Notes: generated from the sequence alone by a model not told the origin. A stretch of 64,000 bases of DNA from Thermoanaerobaculia bacterium (GCA_040879385.1 JBBDKM010000096.1:144150-208149), one strand, 5' to 3'. Positions 9,366 to 63,906 are shown, numbered from the stretch's first letter. Translations and numbers: made by a program.

Positions 9366-9856
9366 ACTGGCGCCGGGCCGATCCGCCGCGCGAGTCGACG
9401 GCTCACGAAACCTTCGTCACTATCGACCTGGCATTCCCAAATGACTATGGTCGTGAACCCCAGTTTGCGCAAAGCGCCCTGCACGCGCGCGTCTCGCCGC
9501 TGGTTTTGAGCGAACTTTTCCTCCCAGAAGAGACGATTGCGCTTTGGGGTCGTGGTCCGCACGCATCCCTCATGACGATGCCAGAAGCATCCGTGAACGA
9601 AGACCGCCCAGAGACGTGAGCGGTTTGCGATGTCGGGAGAGCCCGGTAGGTCGCGATTCTTCGAGCGGTAGCGATGACCGAGCCGGCCCAGGATCTGACG
9701 GACAAGCTGCTCCGCGGACGTATCGCGCTGGCGCACGCCGGCCATCCGGAGCGACGTAGCCGGATCTAGAACGAGGTCGTCGCGCCTGGGAGCGCGCGGT
9801 GAGCCACGAGCTTTGGTTCTGGACGCTGAACGGCGGCGAGAGAACGAGGATTTCAC
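9356..9856 (-). CDS. vsr: very short patch repair endonuclease Vsr
   Basis: ATSLRMAGVRQRDTSAEQLVRQIL...FVHGCFWHRHEGC...VIWECQ parallels E. coli Vsr (TRSKNMRAI..., FTHGCFWHHH, IVWECA). The proposed GTG start at 9856 forms a GTGA overlap with the methyltransferase stop. The first ATG (9745) would cut off the conserved N-terminal block. Confidence 0.85.
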   Translation of the reverse strand: MKSSFSRRRSASRTKARGSPRAPRRDDLVLDPATSLRMAGVRQRDTSAEQLVRQILGRLGHRYRSKNRDLPGSPDIANRSRLWAVFVHGCFWHRHEGCVRTTTPKRNRLFWEEKFAQNQRRDARVQGALRKLGFTTIVIWECQVDSDEGFVSRRLARRIGPAPVQS

Positions 9857-41718: not shown

Positions 41719-41934
41719 GACACCCGCTGCCGGCCCGAGATACTGCCACGCCGAGCAAGACCGCCCACGCGAGCGTTTTGCTGATTCCGACCCGGCCGGC
41801 CGCTTCAGCCTTTCCGGCGCGGTGCGCCACGTCCTGACCGCCGGCGACCGGTTCGACGTGGAGAAGCGCAAGCCCCTCTCTCCGAGCTAGGCCGAGGGAC
41901 TTTTCTTGTAGTCTCTCCCCCTCAAAGGGGACCC

Positions 41935-46493: not shown

Positions 46494-47019
46494 AAGGCCT
46501 CCTCGACGAATGCCGCGGCCGCCAGGCCGAGATGACGGCGCTCCTGGCGGAGCTCGTCGCGATCGAGTCGCCCTCGACGGATCCCGCCGGGGTCGCGGCG
46601 CTCGCCCGCCGGATCGACGCCGAGCTCTCCCCTCTGGGATTGCGCGGCGAGCTCGTGCCGGTCGAGGGCGGGGGCCCGATCCTGCGCGCCGGCAGCGGCG
46701 AGCGGCCCGTGATGCTCCTCGGCCACCTCGACACCGTGTGGGACCCCGGTACCCTCGCCGTGCGCCCGACGCGGATCGAAGACGGCCGGCTCTTCGGGCC
46801 GGGCGCCTACGACATGAAGGGCGGCATCGTCGTGCTGCTCTTCGCGCTCAAGGCGCTGAAGGCTCGCGGCGCGCTACCTGCCGTCTCGGTGCGCCCACCA
46901 TCGACGGCCTCGGCCCCGACGGCGACGGCGCGCACGCCGAGCACGAGCACGTCCTGCTGTCCTCCCTGCCCGAACGGACGGCTAACTTTTCGGACAGGAA
47001 CGCGCGACAATGGACGTGA
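46490..47019 (+). pseudogene. M20-family metallopeptidase remnant (large internal deletion plus frameshift)
   Basis: The N-terminal about 130 aa are M20-like (LVAIESPS..., MLLGHLDTVW, GPGAYDMKGG). Homology stops at ALPAVSV (about 46885). The family C-terminus (PTIDGLGPDGDGAHAEHEHVLLSSLPERTA) follows immediately but in a different frame, ending at 47019. About 220 central codons are missing. Confidence 0.7.
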
Positions 47020-47047
47020 AGTGTCTGCAGTTACAGGAGGTATCCGG

Positions 47048-49618
47048 ATGCGCCTGGCTCCGAGGCTTCTCGCGGCTTTCGTCATTGTGTCCGCGGCGTC
47101 GACAGAGGCGGCGTCCGCGGCGGTCATCTATGTCGATGCCGCCGCGACCGGGTCGAACAACGGGTCGAGCTGGGCCAACGCCTACACGAGCCTCCAGGCC
47201 GGCCTCGCCGCCGCCGTGTCGCCCGACGAGATTTGGGTCGCCGCCGCGACCTACCGCCCGACGGGGACGGCTAACCGCACGATCAGCTTCCCCATGAAGA
47301 ACGGCGTCGGCGTCTACGGCGGCTTCGACGGCACCGAGACGCTGCGCACCGAGCGGGACCCCGAGGCCAACGTGACCATCCTGTCGGGCGACATCGGGAC
47401 CGCCGGCGCCCCCGACAACAGCTACCACGTCGTGACCGCCGGCGCCACCGTCACGCTGAGCGGCGTACTCGACGGGTTCACGATCACGGGGGGACAGGCC
47501 GACGGCGCGCCGCCGCCAACGAGCAACGACGACCGCGGCGCCGGGATTTGGATCAACGGCGGTTCGCCCACGCTTGCGCAGCTGACGGTCACCGGCAACT
47601 TCGCCCTGGGTCAGGGCGGGGGGCTGCGAATCACAAGCGGATCCGCAATCGTCCTGAACTCCCAGTTCGTCTCCAACACGGTTGCCTTCAACGTGGACAC
47701 GAACCTCAACGGTGGTGGCGGAGTGTTCGTCGGAGGCGGCAGCAGCCTCACCGCCCAGAACTGTGTTTTCCGGTCGAACTCGATATCCGGCACCACGACG
47801 GGCGGCGGCGGTATCCAGACCAGCGGCGCACCCGTGACGCTGGTCAACTGCATCATCGCGCAGAATAGCCCCAACGGCCTCCAGGTCTCGACCGTCGACG
47901 GCAGCGTCATCGACAACTGCACCTTCACCGCCAACAACGGCTACGGCGCGGCTTTCATCGTCAGCAACAGCAACTCGATCGCGAACACGATCTTCTGGGG
48001 CGACTTCATCCCGGAGATCTTCCTCTCGAGCGCGACGATCTCCATCTCTTACTCCGACATCCAGGGCGGGGGCTTTCCCGGCACGGGGAACATCAACGCC
48101 GACCCGCTCTTCCTCGGAGCCCCGGGCGATCTGCGTCCCGGTGTGCTCTCCCCCGTCGTCGACGCGGGAAACAACTTGGCGGTGCCGGGGGGCGTGACCA
48201 CGGACGTGGTAGGCCTGCCTCGCTTCTTCGACGACCCGGATGTTCCGGACACCGGCGCGGGGCTGACTCCCCCCTATGTCGACATGGGCGCGTACGAGCG
48301 GATCCCGATCACAGTCTCGACCCCGGTCAACCTGGTCGTCTGCTCCGGAAGCTCCGCCAGCTTCTCGGTGACCGCGGCCGGCCAGCCGACCCTTACGTAC
48401 CAGTGGCGCAAGAACGGGGTCAACCTCGGAAACGGCGGCACGGTCTCCGGAGCGCTCACCGACACGCTGACCATCAACCCGACCGCGGCGGGCGACACCG
48501 GCAGCTACGACATCGTCGTCACCGACGGGTTCGGCCAGACCATCACGTCGGCGGCCGCCAGCCTGACGGTGAACACGCGCCCCACGGCCGCGGCCTCCGG
48601 CACAGCGACGATCTGCAACGGCGACTCCGTCCCGCTGACCGGCTCGGGCGGCGTGTCCTGCGCGTGGCTGCCGGTGACCGACCTCTCGGATGCCGGGAGC
48701 TGCACGCCCACGGCCACGCCCCTGTCGACGACGAGCTATGCCCTCACCGTCACGGCCGCCAACGGTTGCACCTCGACCAACGTGGCGAGCGTGACGGTCA
48801 CCGTCAACATCACGCCGGCGTTGCCGGTCATCACGGCCCCGCTCTCGGTGCCCGTCGGCGCCTCCGGGGCCTCGGCCAGCGTCGTCAACCACGCGGGAGC
48901 GAGCTGGACCTGGACGCTGTCGGGCGGCGGGGTCATCACGGCCGGCCAGGGCTCCCGCCAGATCGTGTTCGACGCGGGCCCGCCGGGAAGCACGATGCAC
49001 GTCACCGTCATCGAGTCGGCGAGCGGCTGCACGTCCCCGATGGCCGAGACGGACATCCAGGTGGACTTCCTGGACGTGCCCCCCACGAACCTCTTTCACG
49101 ACTTCGTCAACACCGTCGCGCGCAACGGCGTGACCGCCGGCTGCGGCGGCGGCAACTACTGCGGCGTATCGAACGTCACGCGGTCGCAGATGGCCGTCTT
49201 CCTGCTGAAGGCCAAGTTCGGCCCCACTCACGTCCCGCCCGCCGCGACGGGAACCGTGTTCCTCGACGTGCCGTCGAACGGCTTCGCCGCGGCCTGGATC
49301 GAGGAACTGGCGGCGCTCGGTGTGACCGGCGGCTGCGGCGGCGGCAACTACTGCCCCACAAGCCCCGTCACGCGCGCGCAGATGGCCGTCTTCCTGCTGA
49401 AGGCGTCGATCGACGCGGCCTACGTGCCGCCCCCTGCCACGGGGGGCGTGTTCACCGACGTCGCGGCGGGGTCCTTCGCCGCGGACTGGATCGAGGACCT
49501 CTTCGCCCGCGCGATCACGGGCGGCTGCCTGACCAATCCGCTCCGCTACTGCCCGAGCAACAACAACAACCGGCAGCAGATGGCGGTGTTCATTGTGAAG
49601 GCGTTCGCGCTGCAATAG
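47048..49618 (+). CDS. secreted right-handed beta-helix (Pmp-like / choice-of-anchor-Q-like) protein with Ig-like domains and C-terminal 3x SLH-like module
   Basis: AGGAGG lies 7 nt upstream of the ATG at 47048, and the signal peptide is [24 protein letters not shown]. The beta-helix rungs contain GGG/FxxN-type repeats, and there is an Ig-like segment ([13 protein letters not shown]...GSYDIVVTD). It ends in the triple SLH-like module. Confidence 0.85.
49067..49615 (+). other. triple SLH-like C-terminal module, copy 1 (183 aa)
   Basis: Three F.DV...(F/W)...(I/V)..L...G(V/I)T.GC.....YCP...(V)TR.QMAVFL.K repeats, joined by (H/Y)VPP.ATG linkers. Confidence 0.75.
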
Positions 49619-49679
49619 GGGCAACGTGTGCCGTAAACCTTCCGGCGCCTCCGTCGTCCGGACGTTGAGGAGGCTCCCC

Positions 49680-51488
49680 ATGAACGTCGAGGTCGGGTGG
49701 CTCCGGGCGCTCGCGGTCTGCGGGCTGCTCGGGTTGAGCGCGTCGCTCCAGGCGCAGAGCACGGGCCTGACCCCGTTGACGGAGATGGGCCCCGCGACCT
49801 ACCTCGCGTTCTCGGGCGGTCTCTACCCGGCGCAGTCCAACACGATGCCCGAGGCCCATGCCGCGGCCGGTGCCGTGCGAGCCGCGGCGATTCAGCCTCT
49901 CGACGGGAACGGCAGTCCGAGCGCGGCCGGCAAGATCGCCCTTCTCTCGATCGGCATGTCGAACACGACGCAGGAGTTCTGCTCGCAGAACGGCCTGCAG
50001 CCCTGCGCCTCCTGGACCTTCGCCGGGCAGGCTCTCGCCGACCCCGAGGTCAATCACACGACCCTCGCGCTCGTCAACGGCGCCCGCGGCGGCCAGACCG
50101 CCATGACCTGGGACGATCCCGCCGATCCAAACTACGACCGGGTTCGCGACGTCGACCTGGCCGGGCAGGGCCTGACCGAGGCGCAGGTGCAGGCCGCGTG
50201 GGTGAAAGTGGCCGACGCCACACCGACGGTGTCGTTGCCGAACGCCGGCGCCGACGCCTATGCGCTGGAGACCTCCATCGGCAACATCGCGCGGGCGCTG
50301 CGAGTCAGGTACCCCAACCTCCAGCTCGTCTTTCTCTCGAGTCGCATCTACGCGGGCTGGGCGACCACACAGCTTAACCCGGAGCCTTACGCCTACGAAT
50401 CCGGCTTCTCGGTCAAGTGGGCGATCCAGGCGCAGATCGACCAGATGGCAAACGGCGGAACGATCGTCGACCCGCTCGCGGGCGATCTGAACTACGGAAC
50501 CGTGGCGCCGTGGATCGGATGGGCGGCGTACCTGTGGGGCGACGGCCTCATTCCGCGCTGCGACGGCCTGGTGTGGGAGCAGGCGGATTTGCAGGCTGAC
50601 GGCACGCATCCGTCGCAGTCCGGCGAGACGAAGGTCGGCGCGATGCTCCTGTCTTTCTTCAAGACCGACCCGCGCACTCGCGCATGGTTCCTCGCGCTCG
50701 GCGACACAGCCGTCGCGCCGACCTCCGGCTCCGCGGCCGGGGCCGGCGTCACGATCTCGGGCGTCGGGTTCCAGAGCGGCGCGGCCGTCACCGTCGGCGC
50801 GCTCAACGCCACCGGAATTGCCGTGACGAATACTTCGATCATCGCGACGACGCCGGCGCTCGCGGCCGGCACTCTCCACGATGTCGTCGTCACCAACCCC
50901 GACGCTTCCGCCGGCACGATTCCGGAGGGTTTCTTTGCGGATTTCACCGACGTTCCGGAAGCGCACGCGTTTCACGACTTCGTCGAGAAGATCTTCCGCG
51001 CCGCCGTCACGGCCGGCTGCGGCGACGGCATCTACTGCCCCGACGATGCCATCACCCGCGAGCAGATGGCGGTGTTCCTTCTCAAGGCCCGTTACGGCGA
51101 CTGTTTCGCCCCGCCGGCGGCGACCGGCGCGGTCTTCGGGGACGTCTCCGCGAGCGATCCCTTCGCCGACTGGATCGAACAGCTCGCCGGGCTCGGCGTC
51201 ACCTCCGGGTGCGGCGGCGGCAACTACTGCCCCGGCGCCGCCGTGACCCGCGCCCAGATGGCCGTGTTCCTCCTGAAGACGCTCCTCGGCTCGGGCTATG
51301 TCCCGCCCGTCGTCGCGCAGATCTTCGACGACGTGCCGCCGGGCGCGTTCGCCTACGACTGGATCAACGACCTGTACGGCCGCGGCGTCACGGGCGGCTG
51401 CAGCGCCTCGCCGCTCCTGTACTGCCCCGCCAACTCCAATACCCGCGGGCAGATGGCGGTGTTCCTGGTCAGAGCGTTCTCGCTCTAA
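49680..51488 (+). CDS. secreted SGNH/GDSL-like hydrolase with IPT/TIG domain and C-terminal 3x SLH-like module
   Basis: GGAGG lies upstream of the ATG at 49680, and the signal peptide is [27 protein letters not shown]. The SGNH-like blocks are LLSIGMSNT (block I variant), GARGGQ and DGTHPS (block V D-x-x-H). An IPT/TIG-like segment ([28 protein letters not shown]...) precedes the SLH-like module. Confidence 0.8.
50943..51485 (+). other. triple SLH-like C-terminal module, copy 2 (181 aa)
   Basis: Same architecture. The third repeat, [24 protein letters not shown]..., is nearly identical to copy 3. Confidence 0.75.
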
Positions 51489-51623
51489 AGACATCCAAGT
51501 CAGCGTCGCCTGCTGCCGTGGCCCTGCCCCCAGGTAGCCGGCTTCTCGCCCGAACGATCCTGCTAGGCCCTAGCTCCGCGATCGCGGATAATCTTCCGAC
51601 GATGGCACTTTGACGGGCTCCGC

Positions 51624-54242
51624 ATGCGATACCTGATCTGCGTCTTCGTCGCGCTCCTGCTGCTCGGCGGCGTCGCCCTCCACGCCGAAGACCATGACCA
51701 GAAGGTCGACCCCTGGGTGCTCGCCACGGCGTCCCAAGGCGATACGGAGTTCCTGGTGTTCCTCCAGGAGCAAAGCGACCTTCGCGGAGCCGTAGCGATG
51801 CAGGAGAAGAAGCGCAAGGGGGTTTTCGTGGTCGATTCTCTGCGGTCGATCGCGGAGGCGACGCAGAAACCACTGCTCGCTCTTCTCTCCGAGCGTGGCG
51901 CCGCGCATCGCCCCTTCTGGGTCGCCAACATGATCTGGGTGCGCGGGAATCGCCGACTCATCGGTGAGCTGGCGGCTCGCGAGGATGTCTTCCACATCTA
52001 CGCGAACCCGAGAGTCCGCTTCGAAAGCCCCGCCCTGCACGGGGACGCAGCCAGTATTCCGCTGGGAGTGGAGTGGAACGTTTTGCAGGTGAGCGCGCCG
52101 GACGTCTGGGCGCTGGGGTTCTCGGGACAAGGAGTCGTTGTGGGCGGCGCCGACACCGGATATCAGTGGGACCACCCCGCCTTGAAGAACGCGTACCGGG
52201 GTTGGAATGGGATGAACGTCGATCACAACTACAGCTGGCACGACGCGATCCACTCCGGTGGCGGCTCCTGCGGCGCCGACTCCCCGGCTCCGTGCGACGA
52301 CACAAACCACGGCACGCACACGATGGGCACGGCCGTCGGAGATGACGGCACTGGAAACCAGATCGGCGTGGCGCCGGGCGCGAAGTGGATCGGCTGCCGC
52401 AACATGGACCAGGGCGTCGGAACGCCGACGACCTATTCCGAGTGCTTCCAGTGGTTCATCGCTCCAACCGACCTCAGCGACGCGAACCCGGACCCGTCCA
52501 AGGCGCCTGACGTCATCAACAACTCCTGGATCTGCGCCCCCGAGGAGGGATGCACCGATCCGACCATATTACGCACCATCGTCGAGAACACGCGCGCCGC
52601 AGGCATCGAGGTCGTTGCCTGTGCCGGCAACGGCGGGGGTTGCGGCACAGTCGGGATCCCGGCGCTGTTCGACGCGACCTTTGCCGTGGGAGCCACGGAC
52701 AATCTCGACCTCATCGCCAAGCTCTCCCGACGCGGGCCCGCCGAGTTCGACGGCAGCGGACGCGTCAAGCCCGATGTCTGTGCCCCTGGCGTCAACGTGC
52801 GGTCGAGTGTGCCGCCAAACGACTACGCATACAACAGCGGCACGAGCATGGCGTCTCCTCACGTTGCAGGGCTGACGGCGCTTCTGATTTCGGCCGATCC
52901 GCGGCTTTCAGGGAATCCGGACGCGCTCGAGCAGCTCATGACGTCGGCCGCGATTCATTCCACGACGGACGAGAACTGCGGCGGGCTCCCCGGCACCACG
53001 ATCCCGAACAACACGTACGGCTGGGGGCGGGTCGACGCGCTGGCGGCGGTCCAAGCCGCGAGCGCGGACCTCGCGCTGGTCCAGACAGGGGCGCCCGATC
53101 CATCGGTACCGGGGCACGCGGTGACGTTTGTCCTCACGGCTTCGAACGCCGGCCCCGCTACCGCCGACCCGGTCACTCTGCAGGTCAACCTCAGCTCCAC
53201 GGCAACGGGCGTGACAGCTGCGACGAGCCAGGGAACGTGCGTCGCTTCCGATACTTCCGTCATCTGCGATCTCGGCTCCATCGCCGCGGGCGCGGCGGTC
53301 GTCGTCGCGATCCGCGCGACACCGACGCAATCCGGCCCGCTCGTGAGCGCGGCCTCGCTTTCCCACCCTGGATTGGATCTCCAACCCGGAAACGAGATTT
53401 CGACGCTCCAAACAGCGGTCCTCGCGTGTCCCCTACCCGCTCCCGTCGTGACGGCTCCCACTTCCGTCCCTCCGCTCACCGACGGCCTACAGGCCTCGAT
53501 GCCTCTCGACCCCTGGCTCGAAGTTTTTTGGTCGCTTTTCCAGGCTTTCCCGTCGTCGTTTGATCCACCGGGCACGCTGACGTTTCGATCCGGACAGCCT
53601 GGCAGAACGATCACCCTGAATGCCTCAACGCTCGTACGTGACGGCGACGAAGCGATCTGCACGTCACCGAACTCGACGATGCTGATTTCGATCGATTTCT
53701 TCGACACGCCTCCCTCGCATGCCTTCCACGACTTCGTCAACACTCTCTCGCGCAACTGGCTAACGAACGGCTGCGGCGAAGGCAATTTCTGTCCAGACGC
53801 ACCGGTCACGCGCGCGCAGATGGCGGTGTTCCTCCTGCGGGCAGAGCACGGGATTATCTACACACCTCCTTTCTGCACCGGTATCTTTCTCGATACGCCC
53901 TGCCCCGGCCCCTTCACCGACTGGATCGAGCAGCTCGCGGCCGAGGGCGTGACTTCCGGCTGCGGCAATGGCAACTACTGCCCCGACAATGCCGTGACGC
54001 GCGCGCAGATGGCGGTGTTCCTCCTGAGGACGCTGCTCGGTTCAGGCTACGTTCCGCCCGTCGTCGCCCAGATCTTCGACGACGTGCCGCCTGGCGCATT
54101 TGCCTACGACTGGATCAACGACCTCTCCGGCCGCGGCGTCACAGGCGGCTGCAGCTCCTCGCCGCTCCTGTACTGCCCCGGCAACTCCAATACCCGCGGG
54201 CAGATGGCGGTGTTTATAGTCAAGATATTCGATCTTCAGTGA
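51624..54242 (+). CDS. secreted subtilisin-like (S8) serine protease with DUF11-like repeat and C-terminal 3x SLH-like module
   Basis: Signal peptide MRYLICVFVALLLLGGVALHA and an I9-like propeptide. The catalytic residues are D in GGADTGY, H in HGTHTMGT and S in SGTSMASPHVAG. A DUF11-like repeat (ADLALVQTGAPDPSVPGHAVTFVLTASNAGP) is followed by the SLH-like module. Confidence 0.9.
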   Translation: MRYLICVFVALLLLGGVALHAEDHDQKVDPWVLATASQGDTEFLVFLQEQSDLRGAVAMQEKKRKGVFVVDSLRSIAEATQKPLLALLSERGAAHRPFWVANMIWVRGNRRLIGELAAREDVFHIYANPRVRFESPALHGDAASIPLGVEWNVLQVSAPDVWALGFSGQGVVVGGADTGYQWDHPALKNAYRGWNGMNVDHNYSWHDAIHSGGGSCGADSPAPCDDTNHGTHTMGTAVGDDGTGNQIGVAPGAKWIGCRNMDQGVGTPTTYSECFQWFIAPTDLSDANPDPSKAPDVINNSWICAPEEGCTDPTILRTIVENTRAAGIEVVACAGNGGGCGTVGIPALFDATFAVGATDNLDLIAKLSRRGPAEFDGSGRVKPDVCAPGVNVRSSVPPNDYAYNSGTSMASPHVAGLTALLISADPRLSGNPDALEQLMTSAAIHSTTDENCGGLPGTTIPNNTYGWGRVDALAAVQAASADLALVQTGAPDPSVPGHAVTFVLTASNAGPATADPVTLQVNLSSTATGVTAATSQGTCVASDTSVICDLGSIAAGAAVVVAIRATPTQSGPLVSAASLSHPGLDLQPGNEISTLQTAVLACPLPAPVVTAPTSVPPLTDGLQASMPLDPWLEVFWSLFQAFPSSFDPPGTLTFRSGQPGRTITLNASTLVRDGDEAICTSPNSTMLISIDFFDTPPSHAFHDFVNTLSRNWLTNGCGEGNFCPDAPVTRAQMAVFLLRAEHGIIYTPPFCTGIFLDTPCPGPFTDWIEQLAAEGVTSGCGNGNYCPDNAVTRAQMAVFLLRTLLGSGYVPPVVAQIFDDVPPGAFAYDWINDLSGRGVTGGCSSSPLLYCPGNSNTRGQMAVFIVKIFDLQ
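53697..54239 (+). other. triple SLH-like C-terminal module, copy 3 (181 aa)
   Basis: Same architecture. The last about 30 nt switch to low-GC codons and are shared with copy 4. Confidence 0.75.
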
Positions 54243-54249
54243 GAGCAAG

Positions 54250-54337
54250 CAGCGCCTCGCCGTTCCTCTACTGCCCCGCCAACTCCAACACCCGCGGTCA
54301 GATGGCGGTGTTCCTGACGAAGACGTTCGGGCTGTAA
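54250..54337 (+). pseudogene. orphan 3' fragment of an SLH-like module
   Basis: It encodes ...[28 protein letters not shown]-stop with no start codon, 8 nt after the stop of the S8 protease gene. It is nearly identical at nucleotide level to the last about 85 nt of gene 49680..51488. Confidence 0.8.
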
Positions 54338-54428
54338 CGGGCTGGTGGTTCGCTCCTACCGGGAGGCTCCCCTTGGGGACTGCCTTCCGGCATAATCCCC
54401 CGTTACTCACGGAAGGAAGGACCATCTG

Positions 54429-57021
54429 ATGCGATCCCGCGCGACTCTCGCCTCGTGCTTCGTGCTCGCCCTGGCGGCCGCCTCCGGAACGGCCCGTGGA
54501 GAGGAGCTCTCGCAGAAGGTCGACTCCTGGGTGCTCGACACCGCTTCGCGCGGCGACACGGAGTTCCTCGTGATGCTGCGCGAGCAGGGCGACCTGCGCG
54601 GCGCCCGCGCCCTCTCCTCGAAGGTCGAAAAAGGCGCCTTCGTCATGGACGCGCTTCGGTCCACGGCGGACCGGACCCAGAGACCCCTTCTCGACTTTCT
54701 CGTTGAACGCGGCGCGGCGTACCGGCCCTTCTGGGTCGCCAACATGGTCTGGGTCCGCGGGAGTCTCAGCCTCGTCGAGGAGCTCGCGGCGCGAAGCGAC
54801 GTCTTCCACATCTACGCCAATCCACGCGCAGCAACCGTCGCTCGACGCCCCTAACGCGATCGAGTGGGGCGTGATGAAGATCCGCGCGCCAGACGTCTGG
54901 GCCCTCGGCTTCACCGGCCAGGGCGTCGTCGTTGCGGGCGCAGACACGGGCTACCAGTGGGACCACCCTGCGCTCAAGGGCAAGTACAGAGGCTGGACCG
55001 GCCTCGGCGCGAACCACAACTACAACTGGCACGACGCGATCCACTCGGGAGGCGGCGTCTGCGGGGCCGACGCGATCGCTCCGTGCGACGACCACTTCCA
55101 TGGCACTCACACGATGGGCACGATGGTCGGCGACGATGGGGGCAGCAATCAGATCGGCGTGGCGCCCGGCGCGAAGTGGATCGGCTGTCGCAACATGGAT
55201 CAAGGCGACGGAACGCCGACGACCTACTCCGAGTGCTTCCAGTGGTTCATCGCACCGACGAACCTTGCGGGCCAGAACCCGGACCCCTCCAAGGCGCCGC
55301 ACGTCATCAATAACTCCTGGGCATGTCTCCCGAATGAAGGGTGCACCGACCCAACAATTCTCCAGACCGTCGTCGAGAACACGCGCGCGGCCGGCATCGA
55401 GGTCGTGGTCTCCGCGGGCAATAGCGGTCCTTCATGCAACACGGTCGAGGACCCGCCCCCGATCTACGCCGCGTCGTTCTCTGTCGGAGCGACCGACAGC
55501 AGCGACAACATCGCCAGCTTCTCTAGCCGGGGCCCTGTCACGGTCGACGGCAGCAACCGGCCCAAGCCGGACATCAGCGCTCCGGGCGTCGACGTGCGCT
55601 CGAGCGTCCCCGGCGGGGGCTACTCCAACTTCAGCGGCACGAGCATGGCCGGGCCGCACGTCGTGGGCGTCGTCGTACTGGTCCTTTCGGCGAGCCCCGC
55701 GATCATCGGCGATCCCGACGCGATCGAGCCCGTCATCACCTCCTCGGCCGTGCCGCGCACCTCGGGCGAGACCTGCGGCGGCGTGCCGGGCAGCGAGATT
55801 CCCAACAACACCTACGGCTGGGGCCGGGCCGACGCGCTCGCCGCCGTCGCCGCCACCGGAGTGGACCTCGCGATCTCGCAGACGGATTCTCCGGATCCCG
55901 CCATCCCGGGCGCCGCCGTGACTTATCTGGTCACCGTCTCGAACTTGGGCCCGGCGCAGGCGAGCGCCGTCCACGTGGACGACGTGTTCTCGCTCTCGGT
56001 CGCGATCGACTCGGCGACCCCGAGCCAGGGAAGCTGCGTAGTCGGGGCAAACTCCGCCTCCTGCGATCTCGGCTCGATCGCCAGCGGCGCGGGCGCGACG
56101 ATCACGGTCGTGACGACGCCCTCGGCGCCCGGCACCGGGACGGCGGCCTCGAGCGTGTCCTCACCCGAGCTCGACGTCAACTCCGCGAACAACGCGTTCC
56201 CGGTCCAGACGACCGTAGAAGCCTGCCCCCCGCCCGCGCCGACGATCACGGCGCCCTCTTCGGTGCCGCCTGCGACCAGCGGCCTGTCGGCCTCCGCCTC
56301 CTCGGGGGCAGGCCACACCGACACGTGGACTCTGACGGGCGGAACGATCGACTCCGGGCAGGGCACCAACCAGATCACCTTTACGTCGGGCAGCCCGGGG
56401 ACGTCGATGCTCCTCGAGGTCGTCGATTCGATCCTCGGCTGCGACGCGCCGCTCGCCAGTACGTCGATCTCCGTCGACTTTCTCGACGTTCCTCCGGCGC
56501 ATCCGTTTCACGACGCCGTGAACACGGTGGCGCGCAACGGCGTGACGGCTGGCTGCGGCGGCGGCAACTACTGCCCCGGCACCTCCGTGACCCGCGCCCA
56601 GATGGCCGTCTTCCTCTTGAAGAGCAAGCTCGGCGCCGCCCACGTCCCTCCCCCGGCGACGGGCACCGTCTTTCTCGACGTGCCCCAGGGCTCCTTCGCC
56701 GCCGACTGGATCGAGGAGCTCGCTTCCCTCGGCGTCACCGGCGGCTGCGGCGGCGGCAACTACTGCCCCGACTCCCCCGTCACACGGGCCCAGATGGCCG
56801 TTCTCCTCTTGAAGACCCTGCTCGGCTCGGCTTACGCGCCCCCGGTCGTGGCCCAGATCTTCAACGACGTGCCCCCAGGCGCCTTCGCCTACGACTTCAT
56901 CAACGACCTCGCCAATCGAGGCATCACCGGGGGGTGCGGCGGCGGAAATTACTGCCCCAATGCCCCCAACACGCGCGGGCAGATGGCGGTGTCTATCGTC
57001 AAGACTTTCGATCTTCAGTGA
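54429..57021 (+). pseudogene. second S8 serine protease with 3x SLH-like module, reading frame broken near 54825 (pseudogene or assembly error)
   Basis: It is a paralog of 51624..54242. ORF 54429..54854 encodes the signal peptide and propeptide up to FHIYANPR, then hits TAA. The catalytic domain (NAIEWGVMKIRAPDVWALGFTGQGVVVAGADTGY, HGTHTMGT, GTSMAGPHVVG) continues in the frame of ORF 54703..57021. Confidence 0.6.
56479..57018 (+). other. triple SLH-like C-terminal module, copy 4 (180 aa)
   Basis: Same architecture. All three repeats carry GCGGGNYCP. Confidence 0.75.
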
Positions 57022-57278
57022 GAGCAAGGCCCATTCGGCGGTACTCCAGTCTAGCTTCATTCGGAAGTTACCGCTGACATTCGGTCTCTAGCAGTCCCCC
57101 ACGACCGCCCGGGGTCAGGCCGTATCTCCAACCTGCCCCACCGGACAGGTTTTCCTTGACCCAACGGCCAGGCTCCGGCGATACTCTTTCCTCCAATTTA
57201 CAAGGGGTCTTCGTCAGACGAGCCGACAGGGGGGCTGTGCCGTTGGTTTACATTCAGGCAGACCGCCGACGCCGGGCG

Positions 57279-60200
57279 ATGGCGTCCTTCCTCGTCGGCC
57301 TCGCGATGGCGAGCGCCGCCTCGGCGGCCAGCTACAAGCAGCAGGGGTTCTCCGAGTCCGTCGTCTTCAGCGGGCTGACCAATCCGACCGTGGTCCGCTT
57401 CCTGCCGGACGGACGGGTTCTCGTCGCCGAAAAGAGCGGCCTGATCAAGATCTTTCCCAACCTCACGACCAACACGTACACGGTCGTTGCCGATCTGCGC
57501 ACCGTGACGCACAACTTCTGGGACCGCGGCCTGCTCGGCCTGGCGGTGCCGCCCGGCTTCGACCCCGCTTCCCCCGAGGACTGGCGCCGTTACATCTACG
57601 TCCTCTACACGCACGACGCGCTGATCGGCGGCGTCGCCCCGAAGTGGGGTGTCGTCAATGGGACCTCCGATCCCTGCCCCGCTCCGCCTCTGGGACCGGG
57701 GGCCACGACGGACGGCTGCATGGTCAGCGGCCGTCTCTCGCGGCTCCTGGCCGTCGGAGCCAACTGGACGGCGAGCGAGCAGGTGCTGCTCGAGGACTGG
57801 TGCCAGCAGTTCCCCAGCCACGCCACCGGGTCGCTCGACTTCGGCGCCGACGAGAAGCTCTACGTTTCCGGCGGCGACGGGGCGAGTTTCACCAACTCGG
57901 ACTGGGGCCAGTACGGCGGCACGGTCCAGGTGCAGGGCGCTCCCGGCACCTACTACACCCCCGCCAATCCGTGCGGCGATCCTCCTTTTCCTCTCGGCAC
58001 GCCGCAGACCAAGCCAACCGCCGAAGGCGGCGCGCTCCGCAGCCAGAGCCCTCGACGCACGGCGGGTGAGCCGCGCCTGTTGAACGGCGCTCTCCTGCGG
58101 GTCGATCCCTCGACCGGCAACGCCCTGCCGGATAACCCGCTCTTCGCGAGCGCGGACGAGAACGAGCGGCGGATCATCGCCTACGGCCTGCGCAACCCCT
58201 TCCGAATGATCGTCAAGCCGGGCTCCAACGAGGCCTGGATCGCGGACGTGGGCTGGGGCACCTGGGAGGAGCTCAACCGGGCTCCCGATCTCTCGACCGC
58301 GCGCAATTTCGGCTGGCCCTGCTTCGAGGGCAACGCCACGCAATACACGGGCCTGAACATCTGCCCCCCGCAAGCGCAGACCGTCGCCCCGTTCTTCACG
58401 TACAACCACAGCGCGTCCGTCATCCCCGGCGACGGCTGCACGACGGGCAGCTCCTCGGTCGCGGGGATGGCGTTCTACCAGGGCGGCAGCAACTACCCCT
58501 CGAGCTATGAGAACGCCCTCTTCTTTTCGGACTACTCACGCAAGTGCCTCTGGGTGATGTTCCCGGGGGGCGGCGGCGACCCCGACCCGAGCCTGCGCGC
58601 CGCCTTCGCCTCCCAAGCTTCCGGCCCCGTCGACCTCCAGATCGGCCCCGACCGGAATCTCTACTACGTCAACTTCGACACGGGCACCATCAACCGGGTC
58701 AAGTACGGCCTGAACGCCGTCGCCACGGCCAGCCCCACCGCGGGGAGCGCCCCGCTCTTAGTCGACTTCAGCGGCGCCTCCTCCCAGCCGGCACAGGTCG
58801 GAGACACCCTGACCTACGCCTGGGACCTCGACGGCGACGGGGAGTATGACGACTCGACGGCGCTCGCCCCGTCGTACACCTACGACACGCCCGGCACCTA
58901 CGTCGTGCGGCTGAAGGTCACCGACCAGCGCGACGCCTCCGACATCAGCGATCCCATCACGATCTCGGCCGACAACACGGCACCCACGGCGATCATCGAC
59001 ATGCCCGCTCCGTCGCTCACCTGGAAGGTCAACGACACGATTGCCTTCAGCGGCCACGCGACCGATCCGCAGGAAGGGACGCTTCCGGCGACCCGGCTCG
59101 ATTGGGCGATCCTCATCCAGCACTGCCCCTCCACCTGTCACGCCCACACGTACCAGACGTTCGACGGTGTCGCGAGCGGCAGCTTCCCGGCTCCCGACCA
59201 TGAGTACCCGTCCCACATCGAGATCCGGCTGACGGCCACCGACACGCAGGGCCTCACACACACGGCCTCGGTCCTCCTCCAGCCCCAGACGTCGAACCTG
59301 ACGTTTCAGACGACGCCCGCGGGCCTGCAGTTGACCGTGGGCACCGCGCCCCCGCAGACGACTCCGTTCACGCGAACCGTCATCGTCGGCTCACTGAACT
59401 CGGTGGAAGCCCTCACCCCCCAGGGCTCCTTTCCGGACGTCTGGGACTTCTCCGCCTGGTCGGACGGGGGCGCGCAGACCCACAACGTGACGGCACCCGC
59501 CGCGGCGACGACCTACACGGCGACGTACGCCACGCATGCCGACCTCAGCCTCGGCGCGACGGGCTCGTCCGAGCCGGCGGGCGCCGGCGCGACCATCACG
59601 TACACGCTGAACGTCTCGAACGCCGGCCCCTCGCAGGCCAACGGGCTGTCGGTCACCGACACCCTTGCGCCCGGGACGACCTTCGTTTCGGCGGGCGGCG
59701 CGGGCTGGTCCTGCGCGGGGACCGGCCCCGTCACGTGCACGCTCCCCGCGCTCGGAATCGCCTCGGCGGCGCCGCTCGCGATCAGCGTCACCGCTCCCCC
59801 GGACGCGGGTGCCATTCTCAACAACGCGTCCGTCGCCTCCTCGACGAACGACCCGGCAATCGCGAACAACAGCGCCGCGACGACGACCAACGTCTTCGCG
59901 CAGGCGGACGTGTCGATCACGCAGAACGGCTCCCCGGCCGCGGTTTGCCCCGGCCAGCCCGTCACGTACACGCTCAACGTCTCGAACGCGGGCCCCTCCG
60001 CGGCGACCTCCGTGACGGTGACCGACACCATTCCCGCGGGAGCGTCGTTCGAGTCGGTTTCGGGCTCCGGCTGGTCGTGCAGCGGCACGGCGACGGTCAC
60101 CTGCACGCGCGCCTCGCTCGCCGTCGGCGCGGCGCCGCCCATCGCGATCACGGTGAACGCGCCGGCGTCGGCCGGCACGGCCACGAACGCCGCGTCCGTC

Positions 60201-61562
60201 TCCTCGCCGACGAACGATCCGGGCCCGGGCCTGAACTCCTCGAACGCGTCGACGACGGTCAACGCGATTCCTCCGCCGCCCGCGGCCTCGAATGTCGGGC
60301 CGGTCTGCGCGGGCGACACGCTGCAGCTGTCGGCTTCGACGGTTGCCGGCGCGACGTACGCCTGGACGGGGCCGAACGGGTTCGTCTCCTCGCAGCAGAA
60401 TCCCGCGATTCCGAACGTCACGCCGGCGGCTGCCGGCGTCTATTCCGTCACGGTCACCGTCAACGGGTGCGCCTCGGCGGCCGCCACGACGGCCGTGGTC
60501 GTTCGATCCCAGCCCGCCGCCGCCGTCTCGGGCGGCGCGGAGATCTGCCAGGGCGGCTCGACGCAGATCTCCGCGGCTCTGACGGGCACGGGACCCTGGA
60601 ACATCAGCTGGTCCGACGGCCTGGCGCAGAGCGCCGGCGTCTCTCCCGCGACGAGAACCGTGAGCCCGTCCACGACGACGGTCTACACCGTGATCGCCGT
60701 CCTGGACGCGCACTGCTCCGGCGCGGGAGTGGGGAGCGCGACGGTCACGGTCGGTCTGCCCGTCGCGGCTCCGACGATCGTGGCGCCGGTCTCCGTTGGC
60801 GCCGGCGCCACGGGCCTCGCGGCGAGCGTGGCCGGCCACGCGGGCTCGACCTACCAGTGGGCGCTGACGGGCGGCACGATCACGTCCGGCTTGGGGACGG
60901 CCCAGATCACGTTCGACGCCGGCGCCCCCGGAACGACCATGGTCCTCTCGGTCACCGAGACCAATACCGCGTGCGTTTCGCCGGCGGCGTCGGCCCGCGT
61001 GCAGGTCGACTTCCTCGACGTGCCTCCCGCGCATGCCTTCCATGACTTCGTCAACACCATCGCCCGAAACGGCGTCACGGCGGGGTGCGGCAACGGGACG
61101 ACGTTCTGCCCGGACAATCCGAACACGCGCGCGCAGATGGCTGTGTTCCTCCTGAAGTCGAAATACGGCGCCGAGCATGTCCCTCCCGCGGCCACGGGAA
61201 CGGTCTTCCTCGACGTTCCGGCGGCGGACCCGTTCGCTCCATGGATCGAGGAGCTCGCGGCCCTCGGCGTCACGGTCGGCTGCGGAGGCGGCAACTACTG
61301 CCCGGGCGCGTCGGTCACGCGGGCTCAGATGGCGGTCTTTCTGCTGAAAACCTTCCTCGGAAGCGCGTACGTCCCGCCGGCCGTCGCCCAGATCTTCGAT
61401 GATGTGCCGCCCGGCGCGTTCGCCGCGAACTGGATCAATGACCTCTACGGGCGCGAGATCTCCGGAGGCTGTCAGCAGAGCCCGCCCCTCTATTGCCCGA
61501 CCAACCCGGTCACGCGCGGCCAGATGGCGGTGTTCCTGGTCAAGACGTTCAGTCTTCAATAA
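57279..61562 (+). CDS. giant secreted multidomain protein: PQQ-dependent sugar dehydrogenase-like propeller, PKD, DUF11 and Ig-like repeats, C-terminal 3x SLH-like module
   Basis: The signal peptide MASFLVGLAMASAASAAS starts at the ATG at 57279 (the ORF is open from the TTG at 57156). A GSDH-like segment (VVFSGLTNPTVVRFLPDGRVLVAEKSGLIKIF, AYGLRNPFR) comes first. It is followed by PKD (YAWDLDGDGEYDD...GTYVVRLKVTD), two DUF11-like repeats, Ig-like repeats (GATYAWTGPNGF...) and the SLH-like module. Confidence 0.85.
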   Translation: MASFLVGLAMASAASAASYKQQGFSESVVFSGLTNPTVVRFLPDGRVLVAEKSGLIKIFPNLTTNTYTVVADLRTVTHNFWDRGLLGLAVPPGFDPASPEDWRRYIYVLYTHDALIGGVAPKWGVVNGTSDPCPAPPLGPGATTDGCMVSGRLSRLLAVGANWTASEQVLLEDWCQQFPSHATGSLDFGADEKLYVSGGDGASFTNSDWGQYGGTVQVQGAPGTYYTPANPCGDPPFPLGTPQTKPTAEGGALRSQSPRRTAGEPRLLNGALLRVDPSTGNALPDNPLFASADENERRIIAYGLRNPFRMIVKPGSNEAWIADVGWGTWEELNRAPDLSTARNFGWPCFEGNATQYTGLNICPPQAQTVAPFFTYNHSASVIPGDGCTTGSSSVAGMAFYQGGSNYPSSYENALFFSDYSRKCLWVMFPGGGGDPDPSLRAAFASQASGPVDLQIGPDRNLYYVNFDTGTINRVKYGLNAVATASPTAGSAPLLVDFSGASSQPAQVGDTLTYAWDLDGDGEYDDSTALAPSYTYDTPGTYVVRLKVTDQRDASDISDPITISADNTAPTAIIDMPAPSLTWKVNDTIAFSGHATDPQEGTLPATRLDWAILIQHCPSTCHAHTYQTFDGVASGSFPAPDHEYPSHIEIRLTATDTQGLTHTASVLLQPQTSNLTFQTTPAGLQLTVGTAPPQTTPFTRTVIVGSLNSVEALTPQGSFPDVWDFSAWSDGGAQTHNVTAPAAATTYTATYATHADLSLGATGSSEPAGAGATITYTLNVSNAGPSQANGLSVTDTLAPGTTFVSAGGAGWSCAGTGPVTCTLPALGIASAAPLAISVTAPPDAGAILNNASVASSTNDPAIANNSAATTTNVFAQADVSITQNGSPAAVCPGQPVTYTLNVSNAGPSAATSVTVTDTIPAGASFESVSGSGWSCSGTATVTCTRASLAVGAAPPIAITVNAPASAGTATNAASVSSPTNDPGPGLNSSNASTTVNAIPPPPAASNVGPVCAGDTLQLSASTVAGATYAWTGPNGFVSSQQNPAIPNVTPAAAGVYSVTVTVNGCASAAATTAVVVRSQPAAAVSGGAEICQGGSTQISAALTGTGPWNISWSDGLAQSAGVSPATRTVSPSTTTVYTVIAVLDAHCSGAGVGSATVTVGLPVAAPTIVAPVSVGAGATGLAASVAGHAGSTYQWALTGGTITSGLGTAQITFDAGAPGTTMVLSVTETNTACVSPAASARVQVDFLDVPPAHAFHDFVNTIARNGVTAGCGNGTTFCPDNPNTRAQMAVFLLKSKYGAEHVPPAATGTVFLDVPAADPFAPWIEELAALGVTVGCGGGNYCPGASVTRAQMAVFLLKTFLGSAYVPPAVAQIFDDVPPGAFAANWINDLYGREISGGCQQSPPLYCPTNPVTRGQMAVFLVKTFSLQ
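61011..61559 (+). other. triple SLH-like C-terminal module, copy 5 (183 aa)
   Basis: Same architecture. Confidence 0.75.
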
Positions 61563-61621
61563 GGGGGTCAGGTCTTGATTCTTCGGATTTTGAAACTCCG
61601 AAGTTCTGAGACCTGACCCCC
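61563..61621 (+). terminator. long GC-rich hairpin after the giant gene (putative intrinsic terminator, no U-tract)
   Basis: The outer 13-bp stem GGGGGTCAGGTCT pairs with AGACCTGACCCCC. It encloses a second inner stem, CTTCGGA...TCCGAAG. Confidence 0.45.
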
Positions 61622-61671
61622 TGTGACCCTGTGACCCGGGTCACTCGCCCGGCGCTCCGGCGGCGCTCAGA

Positions 61672-63906
61672 ATGCGCGCTATGGTCCGCCGTCTCGCGCT
61701 CTTCCTGATTCTCTGCGCCGCGGCCGGCCGCGCCGCCGGTCAGCCCTGCGAATACTGGGTGGCGCCGGCTCCGGTCGGGAACGACGGCAGCCCCGGAACT
61801 CTGGCACAGCCCTGGGCCACGCTCGACCATGCCTCTGCGAGCGTCCCGGACGACACGTGCACGGTGTTCTTTCAGGACGGCATCTACACGGGCACCCACA
61901 GTCTCTACGAGCGTTTCGCGACTCCCACGACCTTCAAGGCGCAAAACCGGTACCGCGCGGTCCTCCAGTACGCCGGCACGGTCGTGAAGCTCTTCGGCTC
62001 GAGAAACGTGATTCTCGAAGGGTTCGAGCTCCGGCACACGGGGCCCGGCGCCGGTGCGCTCGTCATGCAGGTCCAGCAGGCCGGCGGCCTCTGGGCCGAG
62101 AACGTCACGATCCGCGACAACGTCTTCCACGACTCGTACGACAACGACTTGCTGAAGATCAACAACGGCGCGCGCTTCGTCACGGTCGAGGGCAACGTCT
62201 TCTACAACCAGTCGGGCTCCGACGAGCACATCGACATCAACAGCGTCACCGACGTTCTCGTCCAGGACAACATCTTCTTCAACGACTTCGCCGGAAGCGG
62301 CCGTGCGAACGGAAACGACACGAGCTCCTACATCGTCATGAAGGATTCCAACGCCGGCAGCGACGGGCAGATCGGCGACGAGCGGATCACGGTCCGGCGC
62401 AACGTGTTCCTGAACTGGGAGGGCTCGAGCGGCTCCAACTTCGTCCTCGTCGGCGAGGACGGCATGGCCTATTTCGAGGGGCGGGCGATCCTCGTCGAGA
62501 ACAACCTGATGATCGGCAACTCCGGCAACGACATGCGCGCGGCCTTCGGCGTCAAGGGCGGGAAAGACGTCACGTTTCGCGCCAACACGGTCGTCGGCGA
62601 CCTGCCGTCTCTGGCCTACGCGTGCCGCGTCAACCAGGAGGGGGGCAACCCGATCAACGAGAACGTGACGCTGCGCAACAACATCTGGTCGGATCCGACC
62701 GGGACCATGGGCGCGGAGGCCGGCGGAGGCACCAACGAGTTCTCCGACGGCTCCCCGGCGGAGGCCACCGGCCTCGCCCTGGACAACAACCTCTACTGGA
62801 ACGGCGGCGCGGCGATCCCTCCCGGCGACCTCGTGAGCCCGCTGTCCGACGACGCCCGGAGAACGGTGGCCGATCCGCTGCTTCCCGCCGACCAGTCCGG
62901 CATCGTTCTGCCGCGCTGGACGGGGGCCGCGTTCGTGAGTGGCAGCGCGACCATTCGCGAGGAGTTCGAGAGGCTCGTCGGCCTCTACGGAACGATCTCG
63001 GGGGCAGGTCCGGCGGCCGAGGCGGCCGACCCCGCTTTCGCGCCCGCCGACGACATCCTGGGGCGGCCGCGCGGAAGCGGCCCCGACCTCGGCGCGTACG
63101 AGGCGGGGGCCGCGGGCATGGCGATCGCGCCGACCTCGGGCCATTCCTCCGGGGGGACCGGCGTCGCGATCACCGGCGCGGGCTTTGCGGCCGGCGCATC
63201 CGTGACCGTCGGCGGCGTCGACGCGACCGGCGCTTCGGTGTCGAGCGCCGCGTTCCTGACCGCGACTTTTCCCGCCCTGTCGCCGGGAACGCTGAACGAC
63301 GTGGTCGTGAGCAACCCGGATACGAGCTCGGCGACTCTGCTACAAGGTTGGTTCTCGGATTTCCTGGACGTGCCGCAGCCGGATCCCTTCCACCCCTTCG
63401 TCGAGACGCTCTTCCGAGCCGGCATCACCGCCGGATGCCATGGCGGCAATTTCTGCCGCGATGCGGCGCTGCCCCGCAAACAGATGGCCGTGCTGCTGCT
63501 TCGGTCGAAGTACGGCGCCGGACACGTTCCCCCGCCGGCCTCGGGGACGCTGTTCGGGGACGTGCCGGCGAGCGATCCTTACGCCGCGTGGATCGAGGAG
63601 CTGGCCGGTCTCGGAATCACGGGCGGGTGCGGCGGCGGAAACTTCTGCCCGGAGAGCCCCGTGACCCGCCGCCAGATGGCGGCCTTTCTCCTTAAGACCC
63701 GCGAAGGAAGCGCGCACGTCCCGCCCCCGGCCGCGGGCCTCTTCGGCGACGTGCCCGCGGCCGACCCCTTCGCCCCCTGGGTCGAGGAGCTCTATGGGGA
63801 GGGAATCACCGGGGGCTGCCAGGCTTCGCCTCTCCTCTACTGCCCGCACAACCCCAACACCCGCGGGCAGATGGCGGTGTTCCTGGTGAAGGCTTTCGGG
63901 CTGTAA
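61672..63906 (+). CDS. secreted right-handed parallel beta-helix protein (putative polysaccharide lyase/hydrolase) with IPT/TIG domain and C-terminal 3x SLH-like module
   Basis: Signal peptide [24 protein letters not shown]. Beta-helix rungs appear as repeated N-x-(I/V)-x-x-N segments ([49 protein letters not shown]). An IPT/TIG-like segment ([30 protein letters not shown]) precedes the SLH-like module. Confidence 0.85.
63361..63903 (+). other. triple SLH-like C-terminal module, copy 6 (181 aa)
   Basis: Same architecture ([28 protein letters not shown]). Confidence 0.75.

Follow-up and report, generated by a model that had tools for sequence, protein, structure and literature searches.

A six-gene array of exported enzymes with cysteine-bearing C-terminal SLH trimers in a Thermoanaerobaculia bacterium, a probable case of anchoring to a pyruvylated envelope glycan

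The stretch of 64,000 nucleotides (nt) analyzed here, in the following referred to as the window, originates from a Thermoanaerobaculia bacterium (GCA_040879385.1, JBBDKM010000096.1:144150-208149) and contains six consecutive plus-strand genes, g1 to g6, which follow each other with short gaps at 47045-63906 and whose products all end in the same module of three cysteine-bearing S-layer homology (SLH) repeats (Table 1). The module has a length of about 195 amino acids (aa), slightly more than the approximately 180 aa given in an initial annotation of this DNA, with about 60 aa per repeat. The six copies align with a mean column identity of 74% and 69 invariant columns, and six cysteines are invariant among them, corresponding to one C-x5-7-C pair per repeat. 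A search of the six-frame translation of the whole window with a profile of the module (hmmsearch --max, E ≤ 10) yielded the six full copies (348–379 bits), one additional fragment of 29 aa at 54248-54334 and nothing more, which agrees with the initial statement that all other genes of the 64 kb lack the module. The presence of the module in six of six adjacent genes and in none of the approximately 40 other genes of the window is far beyond chance.

Table 1. Features of the SLH array and its immediate surroundings (positions counted from the first nucleotide of the window)
Feature	Coordinates	Strand	SLH module	Description
M20 peptidase gene stump	46490..46891	+		~134 codons; PF01546 E 3e-11, profile positions 1-61 of 206
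g1	47045..49618	+	49019-49615	signal peptide, right-handed beta-helix, three Ig/PKD-like domains, SLH x3
g2	49680..51488	+	50883-51485	signal peptide, SGNH-like hydrolase head, TIG, SLH x3
g3	51624..54242	+	53649-54239	signal peptide, propeptide, subtilase S8, DUF11, PKD-like linker, SLH x3
Orphan relic	54245..54337	+		last 30 codons and stop of SLH repeat 3; begins 3 nt past g3 stop
g4, 5′ part	54429..54854	+		signal peptide and propeptide; collinear with g3 N-terminus
g4, 3′ part	54703..57021	+	56434-57018	other frame: subtilase S8, DUF11, PKD-like linker, SLH x3
g5	57243..61562	+	60963-61559	signal peptide, GSDH-type beta-propeller, PKD, two DUF11, Ig-like domains, SLH x3
g6	61672..63906	+	63301-63903	signal peptide, parallel beta-helix-like head, TIG, SLH x3; last of array

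The affiliation of the module with the SLH family, which had already been proposed in the initial annotation, is indicated by several comparisons. The SLH model PF00395 matched all six proteins with 32–80 bits and thereby above its gathering score of 20.8, and a comparison of the module profile with the PDB led to Sap (3pyw/6bt4; E ~1e-10, precisely 1.7e-10) and to SbsB (E 7e-7). An AlphaFold2 (AF2) model of the module, based on 44 sequences, contains six helices (pLDDT 93, pTM 0.87), and all 15 significant Foldseek matches of this model were SLH trimers of Sap or SpaA, with TM-scores of 0.62–0.72 by query and 0.75–0.82 by target. Judged by profile and predicted fold, the module is a genuine SLH trimer.

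For SpaA it was shown that the active groove is marked by SLH-Gly29, whose backbone flips, by SLH-Arg43 of the TRAE-type motif and by SLH-Trp13, which lines the groove, that Arg and Gly contact the pyruvate ketal and that TRAQ is a functional motif (PMC6081394). The equivalents of Gly29 (G41, G106 and G169 in the numbering of the g5 module) and of Arg43 (R56, R120 and R185) are invariant in all 44 sequences. The glycines directly precede the first cysteine of each repeat, and the arginines are located within a TRxQ motif, which reads TR[ASEG]Q in the copies of the window, every TRAE-like motif having Q in place of E. All six cysteines are likewise invariant among the 44 homologues. Compared to Sap, the loop that contains them has the same length (G-C-G-G-G-N-Y-C-P versus G-N-D-K-G-M-F-E-P), with the cysteines taking the positions directly behind the conserved Gly and directly ahead of the conserved Pro. 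This arrangement suggests that the two cysteines of each repeat probably form a disulfide which staples the hairpin loop.

With regard to the individual genes, Pfam finds the domains Beta_helix (PF13229, E 7e-11), I-set, Ig_7, PKD_6 and SLH in g1, whose module scores 362.7 bits. No match to Chlam_PMP (PF02415) was obtained for g1 at E ≤ 0.01, so that its earlier description as Pmp-like has no support from Pfam, in which just the generic Beta_helix model matches. The start of g1 was assigned to the ATG at 47045. A longer open reading frame (ORF) from 46490 opens with the M20 stump, the start of which overlaps the stop of an upstream Ser/Thr kinase gene and which is followed by no stop before the g1 frame. 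At the site of the stump the corresponding locus of the closest relative (L012), which has a g1 orthologue with 88% nt identity, contains 193 nt compared to 474 nt in the window. A full-length M20 gene is seemingly kept in more distant relatives, L034 and L036 offering ~1.35 kb at this site.

In g2, which starts with the ATG at 49680 and has an orthologue of 602 aa (P0121), Pfam finds just TIG and SLH, and its head matched nothing in Pfam, NCBIfam or a PDB sequence search. The top Foldseek matches of an AF2 model of this head (pLDDT 85) were all SGNH/GDSL esterases (E ~1e-4), with modest TM-scores of 0.3–0.4 by query and ~0.5 by target, and the motifs GMSN and DGTHP are invariant across 43 homologues. 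The assignment of g2 as an SGNH esterase, made in the initial annotation, is thus plausible on predicted fold and motifs but not firm, as no profile matches. The head (49680-50720) belongs to a highly conserved family of more than 6000 members for which no Pfam model exists, with 62–80% identity across Acidobacteriota and Dehalococcoidia, and whose members stand alone (~340 aa) or are fused to varied anchors (TIG+SLH, PKD, dockerin, TSP3).

Both g3 and g4 encode S8 proteases, as had been noticed before. Pfam assigns S8 (PF00082), DUF11 and SLH to each of them, with E-values of 7e-41 for the S8 domain of g3 and 1e-40 for that of g4, in which SLH matches in three stretches (79.5 bits), and both translations show the motifs DTG, HGTH and GTSMA. 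As both proteins share 60% aa identity over 730 aa, module included, the pair is best described, from its sequence, as a whole-gene duplication. The g4 reading frame is broken at ~54826-54855, upstream of the catalytic domain, by a net deletion of 32 nt relative to its orthologues in L002 and L003 (89 and 84% nt identity), which could reflect either a pseudogene or an assembly error. The initial view of the products as secreted proteins is supported, as they are multidomain enzymes of the Sec-exported type, but g4 as assembled does not start with a signal peptide, which lies in another frame than the rest of the protein. The g4 orthologue of the closest relative (L002:10001-10777, also L213) apparently contains four Cys-loop SLH repeats instead of three, with four exact GCGGGNYCP motifs at a spacing of ~190 nt.

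The propeller with PKD and DUF11 repeats that had been described for g5 was recovered by Pfam as GSDH (PF07995; 82.2 bits at a cut-off of 25, in two stretches), PKD, DUF11 (131 bits) and SLH. The g5 ORF is open from 57156 and its start is probably at 57237/57243, 5′ of a conserved signal peptide of the type RRRR-hydrophobic-AxA; L005 and L003 show conservation of this N-terminal region, and g5 has orthologues with 91 and 86% identity. For g6, the proposed second beta-helix is visible as ~9 repeats of the type 'hxhxxNxh' (PbH1-like) in the translation of the head, although Pfam reports TIG and SLH for this protein and pectate lyase only below threshold (E 0.009). PDB sequence searches with the heads of g1, g2 and g6 returned nothing usable. 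The type of linker goes with the module, TIG being found in g2 and g6 and PKD-like domains in g1, g3, g4 and g5.

Beyond the window, the Cys-bearing SLH module forms, judged by profile matches, an SLH subfamily which is large and widespread and whose annotation is automatic. At least 7985 proteins of a word-indexed protein database match the module profile, the named ones carrying the label "S-layer homology domain-containing protein", and an exhaustive search across 1.84 billion representatives yielded at least 7609 clusters (50% identity) at E ≤ 1e-30, 63143 at E ≤ 1e-10 and 134306 at E ≤ 1e-3. Most of the proteins stem from Thermoanaerobaculia or Acidobacteriota, others from Chloroflexota. 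Exactly three GC...[YFWL]C loops are present in 127 of 147 readable top representatives, and in 125 of the 147 the last Cys loop is located no more than 60 residues from the C-terminus, with heads being very diverse; in some members of the family the module is N-terminal. Chloroflexota (Anaerolineales, Chloroflexia), Gemmatimonadota and a few metagenome-assembled genomes (MAGs) of proteobacteria likewise have the exact loop motif GCGGGNYCP, in Cys-SLH repeats that were confirmed by the profile. The best 80 loci in species-representative genomes are all from Acidobacteriota, and 52 of them have at least two module matches within 20 kb, some of these being split matches of a single module. Arrays reach six to seven genes in related genomes, and single related MAGs contain at least 5–12 modules at two to five unlinked places. 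Tandem arrays are therefore the norm in this lineage and the six-gene locus is an unexceptional case of a pattern found throughout it, which largely removes the special character that the clustering had been given in the initial annotation. A search of the literature on SLH domains in Acidobacteria, Thermoanaerobaculia and Anaerolineae found no paper on the Cys-bearing module. That this anchor has been little noticed in the lineage can be explained by the system being thought nearly absent from this Gram-negative branch.

A gene for a CsaB-type pyruvyltransferase, which had been suggested as a partner to look for, was found in related genomes. A local search over 1.4 Mb of related loci (PF04230, seed E. 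coli WcaK) identified PS_pyruv_trans domains in nine related loci, each at a distance of 2–8 kb from a gene for a reprolysin-type (M12B) metalloprotease of ~665 aa which carries the same Cys-SLH triplet. The candidates match PF04230 with E-values of 1e-34 to 1e-47, and their best NCBIfam model is TIGR03609 (S_layer_CsaB) with 213.4, 205.8 and 188.1 bits at a cut-off of 213.1, compared to 54–74 bits for WcaK. In the protein with 213.4 bits the domain is fused to a GT2 and a TuaH-like GT1 glycosyltransferase, a fusion that is seen in several loci. These fusion loci comprise L042:14367-18158, L027:12749-17386 and seven others, the one in L027 having an extra methyltransferase domain and a response-regulator-like ORF between the fusion gene and the reprolysin-SLH gene. 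A Cys-SLH gene is located within 10 kb of csaB in 12 of 18 Acidobacteriota loci, in 5 of 9 Chloroflexota loci and in 5 of 53 others, and at least five MAGs contain both an array syntenic with that of the window and csaB.

When a collection of genomes was scanned with the CsaB domains, the matches listed came from many Thermoanaerobaculia MAGs, then from Anaerolineae, with Firmicutes predominating lower in the list. The closest CsaB proteins outside the Acidobacteriota are those of Anaerolineae MAGs with ~40% identity (Chloroflexota csaB loci L088-L101; L183, L203 and L227), and the same MAGs encode Cys-SLH triplets that are very similar to the acidobacterial ones. These similarities hint at a transfer of the whole SLH/CsaB system between Chloroflexota and Acidobacteriota.

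The host belongs to the Thermoanaerobaculia, a class of Acidobacteriota, and the nearest DNA matches of the window are indeed Thermoanaerobaculia MAGs. The window has a G+C content of ~69% and consists of ordinary chromosome, with a dcw cluster (mraW, ftsI, murE, murF, mraY, ftsW, murG, ftsA) and genes for pyruvate kinase, mfd, surA, an IscS-like aminotransferase and thyX. As SurA is encoded in the window and a gene with a Lip_A_acyltrans domain (LpxL-type) follows downstream of g6, the gene content identifies the host as a high-GC diderm with functions of the lipopolysaccharide (LPS) type, in accordance with the diderm-like genome assumed before. In a second, short-read assembly of this organism, g6 is followed by an amidohydrolase fragment, a SnoaL-like gene, radical SAM genes and the LpxL-type lipid A acyltransferase gene. 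None of the genes after g6 in this second assembly encodes an SLH domain, so that the array stops at g6. The short-read Logan contigs that contain g6 (L280:1-10610) start 150 nt 5′ of it, within the g5 module, from which it appears that the repeated module interrupts assemblies. Downstream of g6, these contigs contain two radical SAM genes (one with a SPASM domain), the LpxL-type acyltransferase gene and a gene for an M64 peptidase.

We consider it likely that the six-gene cluster encodes Sec-exported multidomain enzymes which are held by their SLH trimer on a pyruvylated glycan of the envelope, in the manner of the SLH/CsaB systems. The locus had initially been regarded as not assignable to any described system, and its features fit SLH/CsaB anchoring. 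Five intact genes and the frameshifted g4 encode the exported proteins, with each head being placed on Ig, PKD, DUF11 or TIG spacers and the SLH trimer following at the C-terminus. The three grooves of the trimer, each containing the conserved Gly and the Arg of TRxQ, would most likely bind the glycan non-covalently, as is the case in Firmicutes, the glycan being pyruvylated by a CsaB-type pyruvyltransferase. In this way the enzymes would be kept on or within the envelope, either at its periplasmic face or at the cell surface. The cysteine pairs, which flank the hairpin loop after the ligand-gating Gly, would probably be oxidized to disulfides during folding outside the cytoplasm. The tandem layout probably goes back to the whole-gene duplication of g3/g4 together with insertion or loss in a variable slot, and not to a programmed exchange of cassettes. 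Comparative evidence from sequences gives good support to the idea that the trimer binds a pyruvylated glycan.

Several observations weigh against this reading. It offers no route across the outer membrane for the subtilases and beta-helix proteins and does not specify the side of the membrane on which the glycan is located. No csaB is present in the 64 kb of the source or in the 8 kb downstream, csaB of the closest relative (JBKJWL) was not among the matches listed, and of the three CsaB candidates, two fall slightly short of the TIGR03609 cut-off. Moreover, SLH-Trp13 is not conserved in the module, where Ala, Pro and Phe are found in repeats 1, 2 and 3, respectively (the Pro by the HMM alignment to Sap), with aromatic residues following one to four positions past the site. 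As this residue is replaced in all three repeats, the ligand or the binding mode may differ from that of classical SLH domains.

This raises the possibility that the module binds a non-pyruvylated target, for example peptidoglycan, polyamine-modified peptidoglycan as in the case of OmpM from Negativicutes, or an epitope of LPS or capsule, with the CsaB homologues serving exopolysaccharide synthesis. The lack of Trp13 and the change from E to Q in each TRAE-like motif would fit with such a target, and so would the fusion of the CsaB domain to generic glycosyltransferases and the fact that PS_pyruv_trans enzymes such as WcaK also pyruvylate exopolysaccharides. Yet, the best NCBIfam match of the enzymes is the CsaB equivalog (213 bits, compared to 74 bits for WcaK), the gene is linked to module genes in two thirds of the Acidobacteriota loci (12 of 18), and exactly those residues which contact the ketal in SpaA, Arg and Gly, are invariant here, with TRAQ being functional in SpaA. 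On balance, a ligand other than a pyruvylated glycan appears rather improbable.

The initial annotation had interpreted the locus as a dedicated, recombining display system, in which the shared module serves as a homology block for the exchange of enzymatic heads between expression sites. The paralogous modules of the window share 61–78% nt identity and 38–69% at third codon positions, which is near saturation for the codon usage, with the exception of repeat 3 of g2 and g3 (88% nt identity). Recent gene conversion among the modules was rejected on these identities, apart from g2/g3 repeat 3. The units of head and module are collinear with their orthologues at 80–94% nt identity and at ~72% in more distant MAGs. 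The closest relative (JBKJWL swi_bin.135) contains the upstream kinase gene, g1, g2, g4, g5 and part of g6 at 88–94% nt identity, and CAWHKQ contains g1, g4, g5 and g6 at 79–86%. As the pairs g1-g2 and g5-g6 and the order g1..g4..g5-g6 are contiguous in independent MAGs at 80–94% nt identity, a mis-assembly of the array, which had been considered as a possible artefact, is unlikely. The association between heads and modules was quantified with 115 module genes with usable heads, 101 of which fall into head classes of at least two members. For 78 of these 101, the best module match in another locus is located on the same head class, compared to 6.8 ± 2.5 expected by chance. From these comparisons, heads and modules co-diverge and the paralogous modules are old.

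The only clear footprint of a rearrangement concerns g2 and g3, with g3 having no orthologue, a low G+C content at third codon positions (GC3), a repeat 3 resembling that of g2 and an orphan tail behind it. No g3 orthologue was found in the fetched relatives, in which nt matches of just ~72% lead to g4 orthologues, and its GC3 is 0.80 compared to ~0.90 in the neighbor genes. The orphan relic, whose profile match (54248-54334, 29 aa) scores 34.8 bits (E 6e-10), is alignable with the tails of both g2 and g3 and shares 97% identity with the tail of the L012 orthologue of g2. It was also considered whether the relic is the displaced original tail of g2; the comparison does not favor this, the present g2 tail being equally close to that of the relative (96–100%, compared to 97% for the relic). 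Where the window has g3, the closest relative carries between its g2 and g4 orthologues (L012:13068-20195) two genes without SLH, one for a DUF11+DUF4082 protein (644 aa) and one for an RHS-repeat protein (1727 aa). Overall, the sequence comparisons describe the locus as a variable hotspot that is shaped by duplication, insertion and decay and in which the modules are occasional substrates for recombination.

In favor of programmed head exchange it can be stated that the last ~90 nt of repeat 3 exist in three copies (g2, g3 and relic) which are 88–97% alike and match the g2 tail of the relative, that the g2-g4 slot varies among relatives (g3 in the window, DUF4082 and RHS genes in L012), and that decayed genes flank the locus, the M20 stump and a broken cyanophycin synthetase gene bearing out what had been said about the surroundings. 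However, all other pairs of modules are as divergent as described above (61–78% nt identity, third positions 38–69%), orthologous units of head and module stay collinear across species at 80–94%, and best module matches share the head class in 78 of 101 cases instead of the 6.8 expected. In addition, silent or promoterless cassettes are missing and g3/g4 is a duplication of a whole gene. These stable combinations make a dedicated cassette system very unlikely. Even less credible is a role of the module mainly as an export or sorting tag that is recognized, and perhaps removed, by a dedicated machine (cf. the C-terminal domain (CTD) of the type IX secretion system (T9SS) and PEP-CTERM), which would fit with its position at the extreme C-terminus of 125 of the 147 top representatives behind very diverse heads and with the logic of known Gram-negative sorting tags, but not with a folded SLH trimer of 195 aa with conserved binding residues, with its N-terminal position in some family members, or with the lack of matches to the models for T9SS-CTD, PEP-CTERM and other sorting domains in the six proteins (NCBIfam, E ≤ 0.01).

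Returning to anchoring on a pyruvylated glycan, a broader and more tentative scenario, which we regard as having slightly less than an even chance, would be that an LPS-bearing class of the Gracilicutes (Thermoanaerobaculia, and perhaps other Acidobacteriota) took up the SLH/CsaB system and then expanded the disulfide-stapled trimer as a general holder of dozens of exoenzymes on pyruvylated glycan. Chloroflexota are a possible source, as they contain the closest CsaB proteins and Cys-SLH modules outside the phylum. If true, this would imply a polymer attached to the wall or the surface and a way of displaying enzymes undescribed for classical Gram-negative envelopes.

Some further observations were made in the window. 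The region at 39445-43035, upstream of the array, has a lower GC content (0.62) and is missing from the closest relative, in which the kinase gene directly follows thyX. It contains an ORF for a polytopic membrane protein of 757 aa without Pfam match and the broken cyanophycin synthetase gene, consisting of the N-terminal domain, a partial ATP-grasp domain and a scrap of Mur_ligase_C. A second patch of lower GC (7404-11172) encodes an AraC-type regulator, a Vsr mismatch endonuclease and a C-5 cytosine DNA methylase; this Dcm/Vsr-type pair suggests a mobile or restriction-modification-related insertion. The thyX gene (37545-39134) encodes 529 aa with two Thy1 (PF02511) stretches. As ThyX proteins usually have about half of this length, the gene looks like a tandem fusion. 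Rfam and tRNA scans revealed just two tRNAs, both distant from the SLH locus, and a scan of the locus for promoters and terminators gave counts equal to the shuffled expectation, which is uninformative with regard to operon structure.

In Firmicutes, SLH/CsaB anchoring is textbook knowledge, as it is in the case of the outer-membrane tethers of diderm Terrabacteria. In contrast, a phylum-wide survey found SLH/CsaB practically absent from Gracilicutes (bioRxiv 10.1101/2021.05.31.446380). The systems of Firmicutes (Sap, EA1 and BSLs of B. anthracis; SpaA and SlhA of Paenibacillus alvei) share with the module described here the three-prong spindle of three repeats, Gly29 and the Arg of a TRAE/TRAQ-type motif, the use of one anchor on many different proteins per genome, and a CsaB-type gene in the vicinity of SLH genes, the latter being observed here in relatives. 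Unlike in these systems, the host here is a diderm of LPS type from a Gracilicutes phylum, the Acidobacteriota, an invariant Cys pair is present in each repeat, Trp13 is not conserved, all motifs are TRxQ, and no S-layer protein was identified.

The closest counterparts with respect to protein layout are SLH-anchored enzymes from Clostridia, Thermoanaerobacterium, Caldicellulosiruptor and Paenibacillus, which comprise xylanases, pullulanases and proteases with SLH triplets. They share the succession of catalytic head, Ig-like spacers and SLH triplet, and the retention of hydrolases at the envelope. However, their hosts are monoderm with an exposed wall polymer, whereas an outer membrane is present here, and the heads differ (S8/DUF11, GSDH propeller and an SGNH-like family without Pfam model). 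SLH domains in a diderm envelope are also known from the OmpM, SlpA and Omp-alpha tethers of diderm Terrabacteria, which bind pyruvylated secondary cell-wall polymer in Thermus, Deinococcus and cyanobacteria. These tethers consist of a single N-terminal SLH domain, a coiled coil and a C-terminal beta-barrel, whereas the proteins described here are soluble enzymes with three C-terminal SLH domains and no barrel. As SLH is located at the extreme C-terminus of all six proteins and the OmpM/SlpA-type architecture was found in none of them, an OmpM-like tether was rejected. With the T9SS CTD and the PEP-CTERM/exosortase system the module shares the occurrence of one C-terminal element on dozens of unrelated secreted proteins per genome, but those elements are a beta-sandwich CTD or a short signal, respectively, and the module is, judged by its sequence, a large SLH trimer of the ligand-binding type.

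The anchoring system itself is thus already described, and what is unusual is its occurrence in this phylum and the presence of Cys pairs. Thousands of SLH-trimer proteins, with csaB genes adjoining, are encoded in a Gracilicutes lineage of high abundance in soils and sediments. If the anchoring is real, envelopes of Thermoanaerobaculia would contain a pyruvylated polymer, and proteases, esterases and other exoenzymes would stay bound to the cell, which matters for the degradation of polymers. Compared with the classical SLH domains, the module with its Cys pairs beside the ligand-gating Gly would then be a naturally occurring variant, probably locked by disulfides, on which the mechanism of SLH binding could be studied.

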